38,296 nt of DNA, from IMG/VR virus record IMGVR_UViG_3300047545_000326, positions 1-38,296 of that record; one strand, written 5' to 3'. Under the pieces are notes generated by a model. The model worked only from the letters and a program-made list of their open reading frames with translations, was not told where the DNA came from and searched no databases. Positions 31,158-37,604 of this stretch are shown in pieces; within the stretch, counting starts at the first letter, position 1; each line of letters begins with the position of its first letter. A program made the position numbers and the translations under genes. Source of the DNA: a virus (Duplodnaviria; Caudoviricetes).

Positions 31158-31711
31158 GGGCCCGTTACTTGGCATTTGATTTAAATGTGATGGGTATATA
31201 CACATGCAGGCATTTGGGTATACTGCCTTAGAAGATACCAAAAAAACAAACGACAACAACAAAAGTTCTCGTATCGCAGATGGTGCTCGCATCATCAACA
31301 TGGCTTTCGCTAACGCTCCTGTAGCAGTAGCAGCCTAGTCAGGATCGGGGTTGGTAACTGACCTTGTTACCCAATAGTTACATGATGAGTAGTAATACTC
31401 AACCCAGCAATGGGTAGTTGTTATGATACAGTTACAGAGACCAGGTAAGACTAACCTCTGTTATAAAAAGAGACGTGACTGAATGAACAGCGTAAACGAG
31501 TGTTTTCTTAGTTGTACCCTGTTAATAAAAACAACTAGGTGGTGGATCGGACCATAACATGGTCAGCCCTTACGGTGCAGTATCACAATAGCAGAAAGCA
31601 AGTCCCATTATCTGTAGTTTAAAGGGCAGTACGGTGATACAGTACTAAGCATGTGATACGTTGTATATATGTATCCTTTTAAAGACAGCGGTTCGAATCC
31701 GCTCGGGTCCA
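31158..31711 (+). ncRNA. ssrA: tmRNA (transfer-messenger RNA)
   Basis: Acceptor stem GGGCCCG (31158-64)/CGGGTCC (31704-10) with G3:U Ala determinant and discriminator A. T-arm AGCGG-TTCGAAT-CCGCT. Helix 2 pairing CACATGC/GCATGTG. Pseudoknot-1-like AGGCA/TGCCT plus GGTA/TACC. Tag frame 31252-31338 reads DNNKSSRIADGARIINMAFANAPVAVAA*. CCA is not encoded. Confidence 0.92.
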
Positions 31712-31758
31712 CGACAATTCTGTTCAGAATTGTATTTTTTTATTTTATACGCATTTTC

Positions 31759-33753: not shown

Positions 33754-33791
33754 TCGCATGCCTGTTTATAGCAGGTTATATTCAAAACTTA

Positions 33792-33916
33792 TAACGTAGA
33801 AGTATTGCCGAAGGTGGGGCATTGTACCACTAATGTTTAATTGAAATACAAAACTTGAAAATATGCAAAATGTTGATTTGAAAAACGAAACCCCCACTTT
33901 TGGCAATACAGTGTTA
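33792..33916 (+). repeat. attC-like hairpin element A0
   Basis: TAAC-N6-GTATTGCCGAAGGTGGGG...CCCCACTTTTGGCAATAC-N3-GTTA; 18-bp stem with 2 G:T pairs; ATG 33863 lies in the loop. Confidence 0.8.
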
Positions 33917-34213
33917 CCTGCCGTTTTTTGTCGGGAGGAAGAACAATTAATTGCTAATTATATGGGTGAAGGAGCTGTTGGTGGGTATCATAAAAGTTGG
34001 GACTGGTTAATGCCCGTTGTGGTAAAGATAAACGCTAACGGATTTCACTTTTTTTGGGAAGATTATGTGGTAAAAATATGTAGATGGTCTGACGGCACTG
34101 GAAGCATAAGTAAAGAAAGTTTCTTTAAAAGTGAAGATGCGTTCAAAGCAGTTTATAAATGCGTTGTTGATTTTTTAAAGGAGTGTTACCCTTTTGAGCA
34201 AAATGGCAGGTAA
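33863..34213 (+). CDS. Cassette-borne hypothetical protein (YHKSWDWLMPVV motif)
   Basis: 116 aa; starts inside element A0, and its stop TAA is the TAAC of element A1. Confidence 0.75.
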   Translation: MQNVDLKNETPTFGNTVLPAVFCREEEQLIANYMGEGAVGGYHKSWDWLMPVVVKINANGFHFFWEDYVVKICRWSDGTGSISKESFFKSEDAFKAVYKCVVDFLKECYPFEQNGR

Positions 34214-34337
34214 CGCTTTAGCGGTTGGCGTTCGTTGCCGACTTTGAAACACGAACCTTCACTTAAAAACAAAATTTGATATGGAAAACAACATTGCAAC
34301 AAACCACGAAAACGGCAATGACGCTAACCGCTTGTTA
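34211..34337 (+). repeat. attC-like hairpin element A1
   Basis: TAAC-N5-AGCGGTTGGCGTTCGTTGCCG...CGGCAATGACGCTAACCGCT-T-GTTA; one bulged T and 2 G:T pairs; ATG 34281 lies in the loop. Confidence 0.8.
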
Positions 34338-34481
34338 GCGGTAGTGCCTTGTAAGCGACATAAGCCAAAACAGCTTGAATATGTAGCTTGGCACGAATGG
34401 GCTAATAAAATGTACAAACAAGGTAGAGAGCAAAAACAATGTGATAAATGCGGCAGGTGGTATTTCAAGTCGGAGTTCTGA
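34281..34481 (+). CDS. Cassette-borne small zinc-binding-like protein
   Basis: 66 aa with C..H...WHEWA...QCDKCGRW. Confidence 0.7.
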   Translation: MENNIATNHENGNDANRLLAVVPCKRHKPKQLEYVAWHEWANKMYKQGREQKQCDKCGRWYFKSEF

Positions 34482-34493
34482 TGGCATTACCGC

Positions 34494-34545
34494 TAACACG
34501 CCGATTGACGCAACTCAGTTATACTTTTTAAATTGTCAAAACTTA
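34494..34545. repeat. Array right-boundary site, copy 1 (attI-like candidate)
   Basis: TAACACGCCGATTGACGCAACTCAGTTATACTTTTTAAATTGTCAAAACTTA; 45/52 identical to 37467-37518; no long hairpin. Confidence 0.7.
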
Positions 34546-34630
34546 TAAACAATCCTATCAACAAAATGCTGCTAAATAAGTAAGTTTTAGCGGATAGAAT
34601 GATGATAGAAATAACCAAAATCTTTAACTT

Positions 34631-34867: not shown

Positions 34868-34944
34868 AAGACTTAAAACCATCAACCGCAATTATTGGTA
34901 TCTTAATTTGCCTTGCAATAGCAGGTTATATTCAAAACTTGTAA
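34864..34944 (+). CDS. Small hydrophobic peptide (26 aa) forming the left flank of array B
   Basis: MKDLKPSTAIIGILICLAIAGYIQNL*; ATGA overlap with the upstream gene; its stop is the TAAC of element B0. A 5'-truncated homologue lies at 33735-33794. Confidence 0.6.
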   Translation: MKDLKPSTAIIGILICLAIAGYIQNL

Positions 34945-35066
34945 CGTAAAAGCATTGCCGATGGTGGGGCATTGTACCACCGAAGTTTAATTGAAAAACA
35001 AAAGTTCAAAATATGCAAAAAGATAAATTGAAAAACGTCAGCCCCACTATTGGCAATGCAGTGTTA
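34942..35066 (+). repeat. attC-like hairpin element B0 (homologue of A0)
   Basis: GCATTGCCGATGGTGGGGC...GCCCCACTATTGGCAATGC; two compensatory pair changes relative to A0; ATG 35013 lies in the loop. Confidence 0.8.
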
Positions 35067-35381
35067 CCTGCTGCCTTGTCTGTGGATGAAATTATGAAAT
35101 TAAGAAACCAACTCCCTGATAGTTGGAAGTGGCACAAATGCTATGAACTGCCTTATGTCAATTCACGAACTGGCAGAGAGTTTAGTTTGAAGCATTGGGC
35201 ATTAACTGCACCTGATGGCAAAGGTTTGGTTTGTTCGCTTGGTTTAATTAGCCACGACCACCATACCGAAAACCATAAAAAGTTTTTAGATAACGATGTA
35301 CCCGTTGAATGGGTTGAAAAAAGCCTGTTAATCGTTGATAGTCTGCTTGCCGAGATTGAACGTTTGAAAGGTAGCAGTTAA
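35013..35381 (+). CDS. Cassette-borne hypothetical protein
   Basis: 122 aa. The first ~20 residues are homologous to the 33863 protein and the remainder is unrelated. The stop lies in TAAC. Confidence 0.75.
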   Translation: MQKDKLKNVSPTIGNAVLPAALSVDEIMKLRNQLPDSWKWHKCYELPYVNSRTGREFSLKHWALTAPDGKGLVCSLGLISHDHHTENHKKFLDNDVPVEWVEKSLLIVDSLLAEIERLKGSS

Positions 35382-35456
35382 CATTTTGCGGCTTTGCGTC
35401 AGGCTGCGAAGCGTTGGCATTGATCGGTCGGGTAGCTTGCACAAAACCGCCTGTTA
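35379..35456 (+). repeat. attC-like hairpin element B1 (short, 78 bp)
   Basis: TAAC-N5-GCGGCTTTGCGTCAGGCT...AGCTTGCACAAAACCGC-CT-GTTA; imperfect stem with a bulged T. Confidence 0.7.
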
Positions 35457-35495
35457 TACGCTGGCACGGATTATTAACAAGAAAACTTAATTGAA

Positions 35496-35825
35496 ATGAC
35501 AAATTCAGATAAACTACGTGAGCAATTAGCCACAGAAGAAAATGACCTAAAAGCACTTGGGATAGGCAAGCAAATTATTCGTGAAGAAAGAATGGAAAGA
35601 TTTGAGGAAGAATGGTTAGAAAAAATAACCAACTCCCCAAAAGTTACCCAATACCAAATGGCAAATGGTGGTTACATATTTTGGTTTAACGATGGGAATA
35701 TAATAGATGTCTACCCAAAAGCGAATAAGTTGCTTATCCGAAGAAAAAATAAATGGATAAAACCAGCCTTAAAATGGCTAATTGCGGAACTTCATTTGGA
35801 AACAGATGGTAGTGCTTGCGTATAA
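35496..35825 (+). CDS. Cassette-borne hypothetical protein
   Basis: 109 aa with IDVYPKANKLLIR..NKW; the stop lies in TAAC. Confidence 0.75.
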   Translation: MTNSDKLREQLATEENDLKALGIGKQIIREERMERFEEEWLEKITNSPKVTQYQMANGGYIFWFNDGNIIDVYPKANKLLIRRKNKWIKPALKWLIAELHLETDGSACV

Positions 35826-35947
35826 CGTTCAACTCATTGGCGAAGGCGGGATTTCAGGGTACGTCCGCACAGCCTTGCAGAAATGCTAAATAGTAGTACT
35901 CCGTTGAGCATATAGCGTCCAGCCCCGCTTTTGCCAATGAAATGTTG
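35823..35947 (+). repeat. attC-like hairpin element B2
   Basis: TAAC...TCATTGGCGAAGGCGGG...CCCGCTTTTGCCAATGA-AAT-GTTG; 17-bp stem with 2 G:T pairs. Confidence 0.8.
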
Positions 35948-35963
35948 GGCGCAGTTAATTTTT

Positions 35964-36140
35964 ATGTACACAGAACAACAAATTAATGAATGGAAATCTA
36001 AGGCTGAAAAATGGGATGCTTTAGAAAATAAGATTGCGGCATTTTATGTCGATGAAAATGGTGATGAACTTGAAGACGAAGAAGGTGGTGATTTATGTGA
36101 TATAGGCGAAGTTGCCGCAGCAGCGTTTGGGTTTCTTTAA
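35964..36140 (+). CDS. Cassette-borne small acidic protein
   Basis: MYTEQQINEWKSKAEKWDAL...GDLCDIGEVAAAAFGFL*. ATG 35964 is preferred to the track start. Confidence 0.7.
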   Translation: MYTEQQINEWKSKAEKWDALENKIAAFYVDENGDELEDEEGGDLCDIGEVAAAAFGFL

Positions 36141-36147
36141 TTGCGCC

Positions 36148-36593
36148 CAACGTAACGCAAGTAGGCGAAGGTTTAATAAATTTTTGAGCGATGGCATACA
36201 TAAATAAAGAAACAAGAGAAAAAGTTTGGAATAAGTACGATAAAAGATGTGCTTATTGCGGTACTGAATTAGAGTATAAGCAATTGCAAGTTGACCACAT
36301 TGAAGCACATTGGCATAATTGCGAGGAAAATAATTCATACGGAGTTACCAAAGGCAAACACGAATTAGAAAACTTTAATCCGAGTTGTGCGAGATGCAAC
36401 AGATGGAAAGGAACTTTTACTATTGAAGGGTTTAGAAACGAGATACAGCAACAGCTTATACGACTTAAAAGAGATAGTTCTAATTACAGAATGGCACTTG
36501 ATTACAAAATGATTGAAGAAAGCAATAAGCCCATTAAATTCTTCTTTGAGCGATGGGAAGAAAATTTATAAAACTTTTGCTTACTTGCTGTTA
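36148..36593 (+). repeat. attC-like hairpin element B3 with an HNH gene in its loop
   Basis: 28-nt arms at 36157-36184 and 36561-36588 (24 Watson-Crick pairs, 3 G:T, 1 mismatch), flanked by CAAC-N5 and T-GTTA. Confidence 0.8.
36191..36571 (+). CDS. HNH endonuclease
   Basis: RCAYCG...QVDH...NFNPSCARCNRWK zinc-binding HNH motif. Confidence 0.88.
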   Translation: MAYINKETREKVWNKYDKRCAYCGTELEYKQLQVDHIEAHWHNCEENNSYGVTKGKHELENFNPSCARCNRWKGTFTIEGFRNEIQQQLIRLKRDSSNYRMALDYKMIEESNKPIKFFFERWEENL

Positions 36594-36614
36594 TGTTTCC
36601 GTTTCAATGGAACA

Positions 36615-36741
36615 TAACGTTTTGCCGCTTTGCGAAGGCGGGGTATAAATAGCACTAAACTTTAAAATTAGAACGAATGAACATAGAAAGCACAAAACTT
36701 CAAGATAGCACTCAGCCCCCGCTTTTGCAAAACGGCTGTTA
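36615..36741 (+). repeat. attC-like hairpin element B4
   Basis: TAAC-N5-GCCGCTTTGCGAAGGCGGGG...CCCCGCTTTTGCAAAACGGC-T-GTTA. Confidence 0.8.
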
Positions 36742-36809
36742 GGCGATGGCACGGATTAATAGTAGAAACTTAAAAACCTTGTGGTGTAAAGGCGAACCGC
36801 ATATATAAA

Positions 36810-37418
36810 ATGACAAATACACAAAAATTTGCAAAGCAGGAATTAGATATTCTTGCAGCAACAGTTCCAGATGCGATTGTAACGCCTTTCGCAAAAGAAA
36901 TCTTAGCCTTATGTGAGGCATTTGGTAAATCAGGTCAAAGTGGTGGTTCAGCACCATACACCGCATCAGCTATTGCCCAAGCTGTAAAGAAATTGTGCTT
37001 ACAAGAGCCTATTTGTGATGTAACAGGGCACGATGATGAGTGGGTAGATGTTGCAGAGTGGATGGGTGAACCTATGTACCAAAACGCAAGGTGTGGAGGG
37101 TTGTTTAAATACCAAAATGGAAAATGTAGCTACAATGATGCTATCGTTTGGAAGGGTGAAGAAGAGTACGACACTTTTACTGGTAGAGTTTACATTGATG
37201 ATAAAGACTTTGAATTAATTGGAAGTAGCCAATATGCTAAATTCCCATTTAAACCAAAGACATTTTACATTGATGTAGTTCGTGTTCCAATTACAAAAGA
37301 CGAAGCGGAAAAGAGAAACCTTCATTATATTGAAGATGGATTTGGAGAATGTTATTACACGGTATTAAAAGACCCGAAACAACTCGATAAGGTTTTTAAA
37401 TACTATGATAAGAAGTAA
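36810..37418 (+). CDS. Cassette-borne phage-type hypothetical protein (F..SGQSGGSA motif)
   Basis: 202 aa, inside the body 36738-37470. Confidence 0.8.
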   Translation: MTNTQKFAKQELDILAATVPDAIVTPFAKEILALCEAFGKSGQSGGSAPYTASAIAQAVKKLCLQEPICDVTGHDDEWVDVAEWMGEPMYQNARCGGLFKYQNGKCSYNDAIVWKGEEEYDTFTGRVYIDDKDFELIGSSQYAKFPFKPKTFYIDVVRVPITKDEAEKRNLHYIEDGFGECYYTVLKDPKQLDKVFKYYDKK

Positions 37419-37466
37419 ATTAATTGGTAGGCACTATCGGGTTGGCAGTCTGGTAGTGCTTTCGCC

Positions 37467-37518
37467 TAACACGTTCATTTACGCAACTGAATTATACCTT
37501 TTAAATTGTCAAAACTTA
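37467..37518. repeat. Array right-boundary site, copy 2 (attI-like candidate)
   Basis: TAACACGTTCATTTACGCAACTGAATTATACCTTTTAAATTGTCAAAACTTA. Confidence 0.7.
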
Positions 37519-37523
37519 CAACT

Positions 37524-37604
37524 ATGTTAGCCTACACACTTTTAGCCATATATCTTATCTGCTTGTATTTTGCTTATGCAGGCGCAGCAGAAGTAAATGA
37601 TTAA
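37524..37604 (+). CDS. Possible small hydrophobic peptide (26 aa)
   Basis: MLAYTLLAIYLICLYFAYAGAAEVND*, with an A-rich leader supplied by the boundary site. Confidence 0.35.
   Translation: MLAYTLLAIYLICLYFAYAGAAEVND

Follow-up and report, generated by a model that had tools for sequence, protein, structure and literature searches.

A gene-filled attC-like site in a cassette array of a freshwater crAss-like phage, and a paired box that recurs in other phages

The window analysed here is a whole virus contig of 38,296 bases, estimated to be 33% complete, from a freshwater crAss-like phage. Profile matches to the crassvirus capsid, muzzle and ring proteins (PF23898, PF25731, PF24228 and PF25702) identify it as a Crassvirales-like phage. 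Two short cassette arrays lie between 33.77 and 37.53 kb, and the left and right platform ends are duplicated and common to both. The positions of all features are given in Table 1. Seven co-oriented hairpin sites are distributed across the two arrays, with AAC and GTT present in all seven. Our own site detector recovered six sites at its first setting and five at a stricter one, and one site was placed by eye; the stricter setting gave a single site in 79,980 shuffled bases. The left platform end of array 1 may play an attI-like role. The platform as a whole is duplicated in tandem (33770-34550 and 34920-37526), with the two arrays arranged around a 78-aa gene. The last cassette gene encodes a Tad3-family anti-Thoeris protein, so the array carries counter-defence cargo. 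A phage tmRNA gene is present further upstream (31158-31714; Rfam RF00023, 47.5 bits); its interior contains some 220 extra bases.

Table 1. Positions of the cassette-array features within the window.
Feature	Position	Strand	Remarks
Left platform end, array 1	33770..33795	+	related contigs diverge directly after its AAC
Site 1, 131 nt	33789..33919	+	attC-like hairpin
Site 2, 133 nt	34208..34340	+	attC-like hairpin
Right platform end, array 1	34491..34550	+	AAC without a hairpin after it
Left platform end, array 2	34920..34945	+	near copy of 33770-33795
Site 3, 131 nt	34939..35069	+	attC-like hairpin
Site 4, 84 nt	35376..35459	+	one AGCGTTGG in the interior at 35410
Site 5, 131 nt	35820..35950	+	placed by eye; missed by the detector on this strand
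Cassette body upstream of the HNH site	35944..36151	+	58-aa ORF, 15-nt terminal inverted repeats
Gene-filled attC-like site, 452 nt	36145..36596	+	GCCCAAC, 5-nt spacer, left arm, HNH gene, right arm, 1-nt spacer, GTTATGT
Left arm	36157..36184	+	outer part common to L001 and L093 (another gene inside in L093)
First repeat copy	36183..36194	+	T-run and box AGCGATGG (36187-36194); supplies the HNH start codon
HNH endonuclease gene, 126 aa	36191..36571	+	CxxC-DH-N-CxxCN motifs intact; stop codon within the right arm
Second repeat copy	36545..36556	+	box AGCGATGG (36549-36556), translated F-E-R-W; mirror position of the first
Right arm	36561..36588	+	pairs with the left arm
Empty cassette body, 29 bp	36590..36618	+	small hairpin itself; directly after the filled site in the window and L001
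Site 7, 133 nt	36612..36744	+	attC-like hairpin
Last cargo gene, Tad3 family	36810..37418	+	Pfam: Type I Thoeris inhibitor; PF25185, E 9e-24
Right platform end, array 2	37464..37526	+	array boundary

One of the seven sites holds a whole HNH endonuclease gene. A first-pass annotation had described complementary arms about 380 nt apart with this gene between them; the arms are 28 nt long and 86% complementary, with 376 nt between them. It had also noted that the arms share a signature and 5-nt and 1-nt spacers with other elements, and indeed GCCCAAC plus 5 nt on the left and 1 nt plus GTTATGT on the right are the same in the six other sites of the array. The ORF matches PF01844 (E = 9e-7) and phrog_2118 (E = 8e-39), and residues C20, C23, D35, H36, N61, C66, C69 and N70 are invariant in 50 sequences. 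A domain search of the protein found one nuclease domain and no separate DNA-binding domain. Its sole match among solved structures is the HNH domain of Cas9 (E = 3e-4). The 12-nt direct repeat TTTGAGCGATGG, annotated earlier at both edges of the gene, is exact at the positions given, and the HNH start codon (ATG at 36191) falls inside the first copy. Shuffling produced a 12-mer in common between the two end windows in 2 of 3000 trials. The second copy is part of the reading frame and falls on the conserved FxFE end of the HNH family. The core of the repeat, AGCG[AT][TG]GG, is an 8-nt box that recurs throughout the system; in the HNH site its two copies lie 35 and 33 nt from the respective site ends.

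The HNH site folds better on the gene-sense strand. The plus strand is predicted to fold with its arms paired at -47.7 kcal/mol (z = -3.0, matched by none of 100 shuffles), against a weaker -36.8 (z = -1.6, matched by 5 of 100) for the minus strand. The outer 17 pairs have predicted pairing probabilities of 0.81-1.0 on the plus strand, and the outer stem pairs through G-T wobbles. Deletion of one repeat copy together with the interval restores a hairpin in silico (-20.4), as had been proposed. Integrons recombine the bottom strand, which is the better-folding one and lies opposite to the genes (as outlined in PMC8946536 and PMC2727003); the gene-sense strand gives the better fold in six of the seven sites of the window, and the polarity is therefore inverted here relative to attC. 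Sites of the same type occur with genes on the other strand in a Bacteroidota chromosome (L311 6679-10046, G398), where the genes at three of them run antisense to the AAC-first strand. That locus also has two boxes separated by about 110 nt, and a 405-aa integrase adjoins the sites and is a candidate for acting on them.

CALINs are groups of two or more co-oriented attC sites less than 4 kb apart with no intI. By our own detector and by eye, seven co-oriented attC-like sites are found here on a contig that is 33% complete. No tyrosine recombinase (PF00589) was detected on this contig or in five related virus records, two of which are at least 90% complete. The HNH site has RYYYAAC- and GTTRRRY-like ends with AAC and GTT (GCCCAAC and GTTATGT), and is predicted to form an imperfect inverted repeat, as a single-strand hairpin with unpaired spacers. 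It departs from attC in having no bulge in the outer stem, where PMC2727003 gives the L stem two or three extrahelical bases, and in having 376 nt between its arms, where PMC4889954 gives 20-100 nt for the variable terminal structure.

A different, complete 33.5-kb phage (L001) carries an identical HNH protein within near-identical arms, with other upstream neighbours. The 12-nt repeat is perfect there too, and the same 29-bp empty body follows the filled site. Short empty bodies also come directly after the filled loops of L093 (two), L004 and L269, and those of L093 and L004 are like that of the window. Across the loci compared, the downstream empty body is kept while the upstream neighbours vary. 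In contigs from three samples the platform is shared as far as the AAC at 33795, beyond which each continues differently; given their short sides, we read them as related phages. This divergence would fit a crossover at AAC with the filled site and empty body as the unit, and the comparisons make it likely that the two move together. Two runs (X1 and X2) hold the filled site on one contig and may represent the source sample, and were hence counted as non-independent. The loop motif CGTTT[CT]AATG is common to empty bodies and compact sites (window 36590-36618; L093; L001 3422-3476), so that cassette bodies and sites both have an empty form with the same loop. Joints at 33797 to about 34490 in run X4 may correspond to a platform with no cassettes or other ones.

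The frame of the HNH site also holds other cargo. The same outer arms enclose an unrelated 58-aa gene in L093, and in L001 they recur in a compact sister site, where the loop is short and different. A deep contig from run X4 matches both outer arms and neither repeat copy, and another empty body comes next. The joint of this contig (36174-36570; shorter side 20 nt, interior unseen) was considered as the predicted empty allele and rejected, there being no match across either repeat copy. A scan with a left-arm 15-mer gave 83 loci, one of which (L075) has the right arm, the others being chance or coding matches; the right-arm scan gave five loci, two of them real. Of the earlier proposal that genes can be captured inside the site itself, the part that makes the loop a slot able to hold genes is supported, by L093 and the X4 contig with the same outer arms and by the HNH relatives of L002, L096 and L004, which are enclosed by other arms.

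The same HNH cargo, in turn, is found in other frames. We surveyed 101 distinct flank sets of HNH relatives, with 32 further loci skipped for short flanks or a missing start or stop codon. A loop-type context is present in five flank sets, namely the window, L001, L002, L096 and L004, and most relatives are without arms; below 64% identity, 87 of the 88 flank sets have no loop-type arms. Both arms of L002 and L096 are wholly different from those of the window and yet still pair. Both repeat copies are retained without arms in L094 (89% identity), and one cassette-body end is retained in each of L097 and L104. In runs X3, X4 and X6 a GTT box precedes the start of a close relative. In L004 a 46%-identical HNH protein is encoded in the loop and flanked by a different 11-nt direct repeat. 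A tree of 65 of the 96 HNH proteins, with ends trimmed and bootstrap not settled, groups L001, L002, L096 and L094 in a clade with 99/96 support, and these four rows show three contexts. Box-bearing HNH proteins, 10 of 65 rows, are not one clade in this tree (5 changes, of which at least 3 are forced), which speaks against one simple origin. In L002, L097, L094 and L104, identity to the window amounts to 80-92% immediately inside the 5' box, compared with 43-64% in the outer part of the 5' flank. Among nine relatives the two repeat copies are alike at 8-10 of 12 positions, and among 83 proteins below 60% identity the R-W tail is present in one and the 5' copy in none. Since the repeat is retained in relatives with other arms or none, it is older than the present arms and travels with the gene.

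These comparisons bear on whether the long site has lost recombination, either as a dead remnant or as a chance fold. Long loops reduce recombination by up to 4 logs under replicative conditions according to the account in PMC8946536, and no integrase was found on the contig. The same account describes good recombination of long loops when they are delivered single-stranded, so a 380-nt loop need not block the site. We regard a dead or fortuitous structure as very improbable, given the recurrence of the identical protein and near-identical arms among other neighbours in a different complete phage, the joint divergence of two arms that still pair in L002 and L096, and the near absence of detector hits in shuffled sequence.

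It had further been proposed that a selfish nuclease invaded the loop and duplicated its target. A homing endonuclease has a cognate empty allele and one fixed insertion site among close homologues. A 19-nt pattern whose matches would include the predicted empty allele hit 61 loci in the viral collection, none of them with the arms of the HNH site. The insertion site is not fixed, with two arm types and an armless context in the one 99/96 clade. The HNH catalytic motifs are intact. In favour of HNH having invaded this loop, duplicated 12 bp and now spreading by cutting empty sites are the intact motifs, the perfect repeat in the window and L001, and the loop position in five of 101 flank sets. 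Set against this are the absence of an empty allele among the 61 loci, the three contexts among the four closest proteins, a repeat whose two copies match at 8-10 of 12 positions in nine relatives and which also occurs with non-nucleases, the single nuclease domain, and the lack of loop-type arms in 87 of 88 more distant flank sets. We give homing very little credence. The part of the earlier inference that survives is the loop as a gene-holding slot; invasion with target duplication is not supported, as no empty allele was found among those loci, the repeat lies in other frames, and cargo other than nucleases is bracketed by it.

The box occurs well beyond HNH genes. The scan with the 19-nt pattern comprised 51 distinct hits; the distance behind a detected site is 64-68 nt for 21 of them and 11-14 nt for 2. 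DNA methyltransferases of four Pfam families account for 27 of the 35 ORFs behind the box. In L246-L305 one leader, consisting of a pyrimidine run and a box about 70 nt after GTT, precedes methyltransferases of four unrelated Pfam families, and the mirror arm of the leader is translated as their lysine-rich tail. We looked for a second box at the mirror position in 23 of the 27 methyltransferase cassettes, which had been picked on the 5' copy alone; the four with a missing or cut leader or trailer were excluded. A box within one mismatch is present in 12 of the 23, against 0.9% of 1150 control windows, although the cassettes are related and the 12 are not independent events. Allowing two mismatches gives 16 of 23, against 8.3% of the same control windows. 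The 12 mirror-pair cassettes include N6/N4, D12, C5 and EcoRI-type cargo. Small unrelated ORFs are also bracketed by boxes (by eye, L256 and L289, and more loosely L280), and in L268 a 15-nt exact repeat surrounds two genes and a promoter that we take, from its consensus, to be Bacteroidota-type. Because the short repeat brackets unrelated genes in other phages, it is likely a cargo-joining mark rather than the scar of a selfish nuclease. The 12-nt repeat of the HNH site is thus likely to be a pair of the 8-nt box at the top of the stem, marking where cargo joins a reusable frame.

The position of the joints can be followed in five pairs of frames with unrelated cargo, which are 72-98% identical outside the 3' box and 48-65% identical inside it. 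In the methyltransferase cassettes the frame common to the pair extends at the 5' end beyond the box and reaches the start codon about 25 nt further on (76-100% identity); the joint is therefore not in every case the 5' box. In many cassettes the 3' copy is degenerate and encodes the last codons of the cargo. Among unselected boxes, 22 are on the folding strand against 2 on the other, and many of these are such 3' copies. No mirror box pair was found in 19 unselected cassette bodies or in the filled loops detected besides those with HNH, and the filled loops of L093 and L004 are without a box.

The arm-box-insert-box-arm layout is the expected trace of a general capture process in which a one-box loop takes up any inserted DNA and duplicates its box, the HNH gene having been captured long ago and having later changed its outer arms. 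The exact repeat of L268 is in keeping with such a process, as is the short homology to the box that the HNH gene ends provide at both joints. One-box empty hairpins, which it calls for, were not found: the methyltransferase-frame version has no match in viral contigs, and none of 143 distinct box occurrences in the collected loci has close flanking arms. The empty units that are seen have the other loop, CGTTT[CT]AATG, and the 5' joint often lies 25 nt past the box. Capture with target duplication is, in our judgement, on the unlikely side.

The boxes might instead form an internal loop of the folded strand with a structural or protein-binding role, maintained by selection, with the joints nearby only because the stem ends there. 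The stem does continue inside the boxes in L304 and L268, and the box resembles the CGAAGG signature of the arms. In the L304 methyltransferase cassette the boxes face each other in a long stem, with about 29 more paired bases to the start and stop codons. The 19-mer occurs three times in 401 Bacteroidota genomes, and two of these chromosomes keep the box on the AAC-first strand with genes facing the other way. A purely structural role is nevertheless improbable, since in many cases the 3' copy is degenerate and codes for the end of the cargo protein, and most units have no box pair. L309 was rejected as a box occurrence, being a coding match. A translation signal is weakened as an explanation of the box by its antisense orientation to genes in L308 and L310, two loci only. 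A Chi-like role was also considered; the box gave 190 matches against 151 for controls on one chromosome and 135 against 64 on another, too modest for support.

Our preferred reading, which we hold at slightly better than even, is that HNH is passenger cargo, that the filled site and the empty body are moved in trans, and that the boxes are frame elements where cargo joins. The passenger role rests on comparison, while the recombinase acting in trans and joining at the boxes are proposals drawn from sequence. In such a scheme the gene-sense strand would fold and be cut at AAC by a tyrosine recombinase supplied in trans, and a cut there would make the filled site and the 29-bp empty body the moving unit. 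Exchange of cargo from one frame to another would proceed by short-homology recombination or by template switching, at the boxes or next to them. In the HNH site the gene's own ends, the ATGGCA start and the TTT-GAG of FxFE, may help joining, and the R-W tail of the protein would be read from the box. More tentatively, the box may be a dedicated joining signal of a cassette-building pathway, in which phage DNA, with promoters and several genes among it, is captured into hairpin frames or swapped between them at paired boxes, in bodies and loops alike. If this were so, it would be the first mechanism to become visible by which an integron-like system forms cassettes de novo.

Several known systems resemble the HNH site in part. 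The attC/CALIN arrays of virulent phages outlined by Qi et al. 2023 (PMC9892861), which include a Polaribacter phage among their examples, likewise consist of AAC/GTT hairpins between small genes with no adjoining integrase. The HNH site and its array differ from those phage CALINs, as described there, in the interior of about 380 nt with a whole gene, unbulged outer stem, gene-sense folding, empty body behind the filled site and paired boxes. Group IIC-attC introns (PMC8876359) and IS1111-attC elements (PMC11187229) also tie foreign DNA to a cassette recombination site; as summarized in those sources, they carry a reverse transcriptase or transposase of their own and insert at, or next to, one site end, unlike a lone 126-aa gene between intact arms whose slot and box are also used by cargo other than nucleases. 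The insertions of restriction-modification and orphan methyltransferase genes outlined by Furuta et al. 2010 (PMC2853133) similarly place nuclease and methyltransferase genes between direct repeats without a mobility gene. Those insertions are described with long variable duplications and an observed empty allele, in contrast to the one short recurring box inside inverted arms, and the empty allele not found, here. The HNH protein belongs to the same family as free-standing phage HNH proteins (phrog_2118; Tenacibaculum phage Gundel_1 and Polaribacter phage Danklef_1), most of which differ in lying in ordinary gene rows without arms or boxes. Our literature search, for most papers at the level of abstracts, gave no description of gene-filled sites or of the box; the supplements of Qi et al. 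2023 may list such phage sites.

The nuclease story is ordinary, and it is the box that merits testing. The way in which integron cassettes first arise is described as largely unknown in PMC5371416 and as an outstanding question in PMC8618304. A box at the cargo-frame boundary of unrelated genes turns the question of cassette origin into a sequence that can be mutated. The L268 cargo, a promoter with two genes, points to capture at the DNA level and not to copying of single mRNAs. As models built on loops of 20-100 nt would miss sites of 450 nt, phage cassette systems of this kind are probably under-counted; they carry methyltransferases, nucleases and an anti-defence gene (Tad3). In the cultured Polaribacter phage Danklef_1 (MT732458.1, about 36295-36737; L313 3380-3822), a site of about 440 nt placed by eye encloses gene 55 together with a promoter-like stretch in its loop, and a cassette body just upstream contains, again by eye, an HNH relative.
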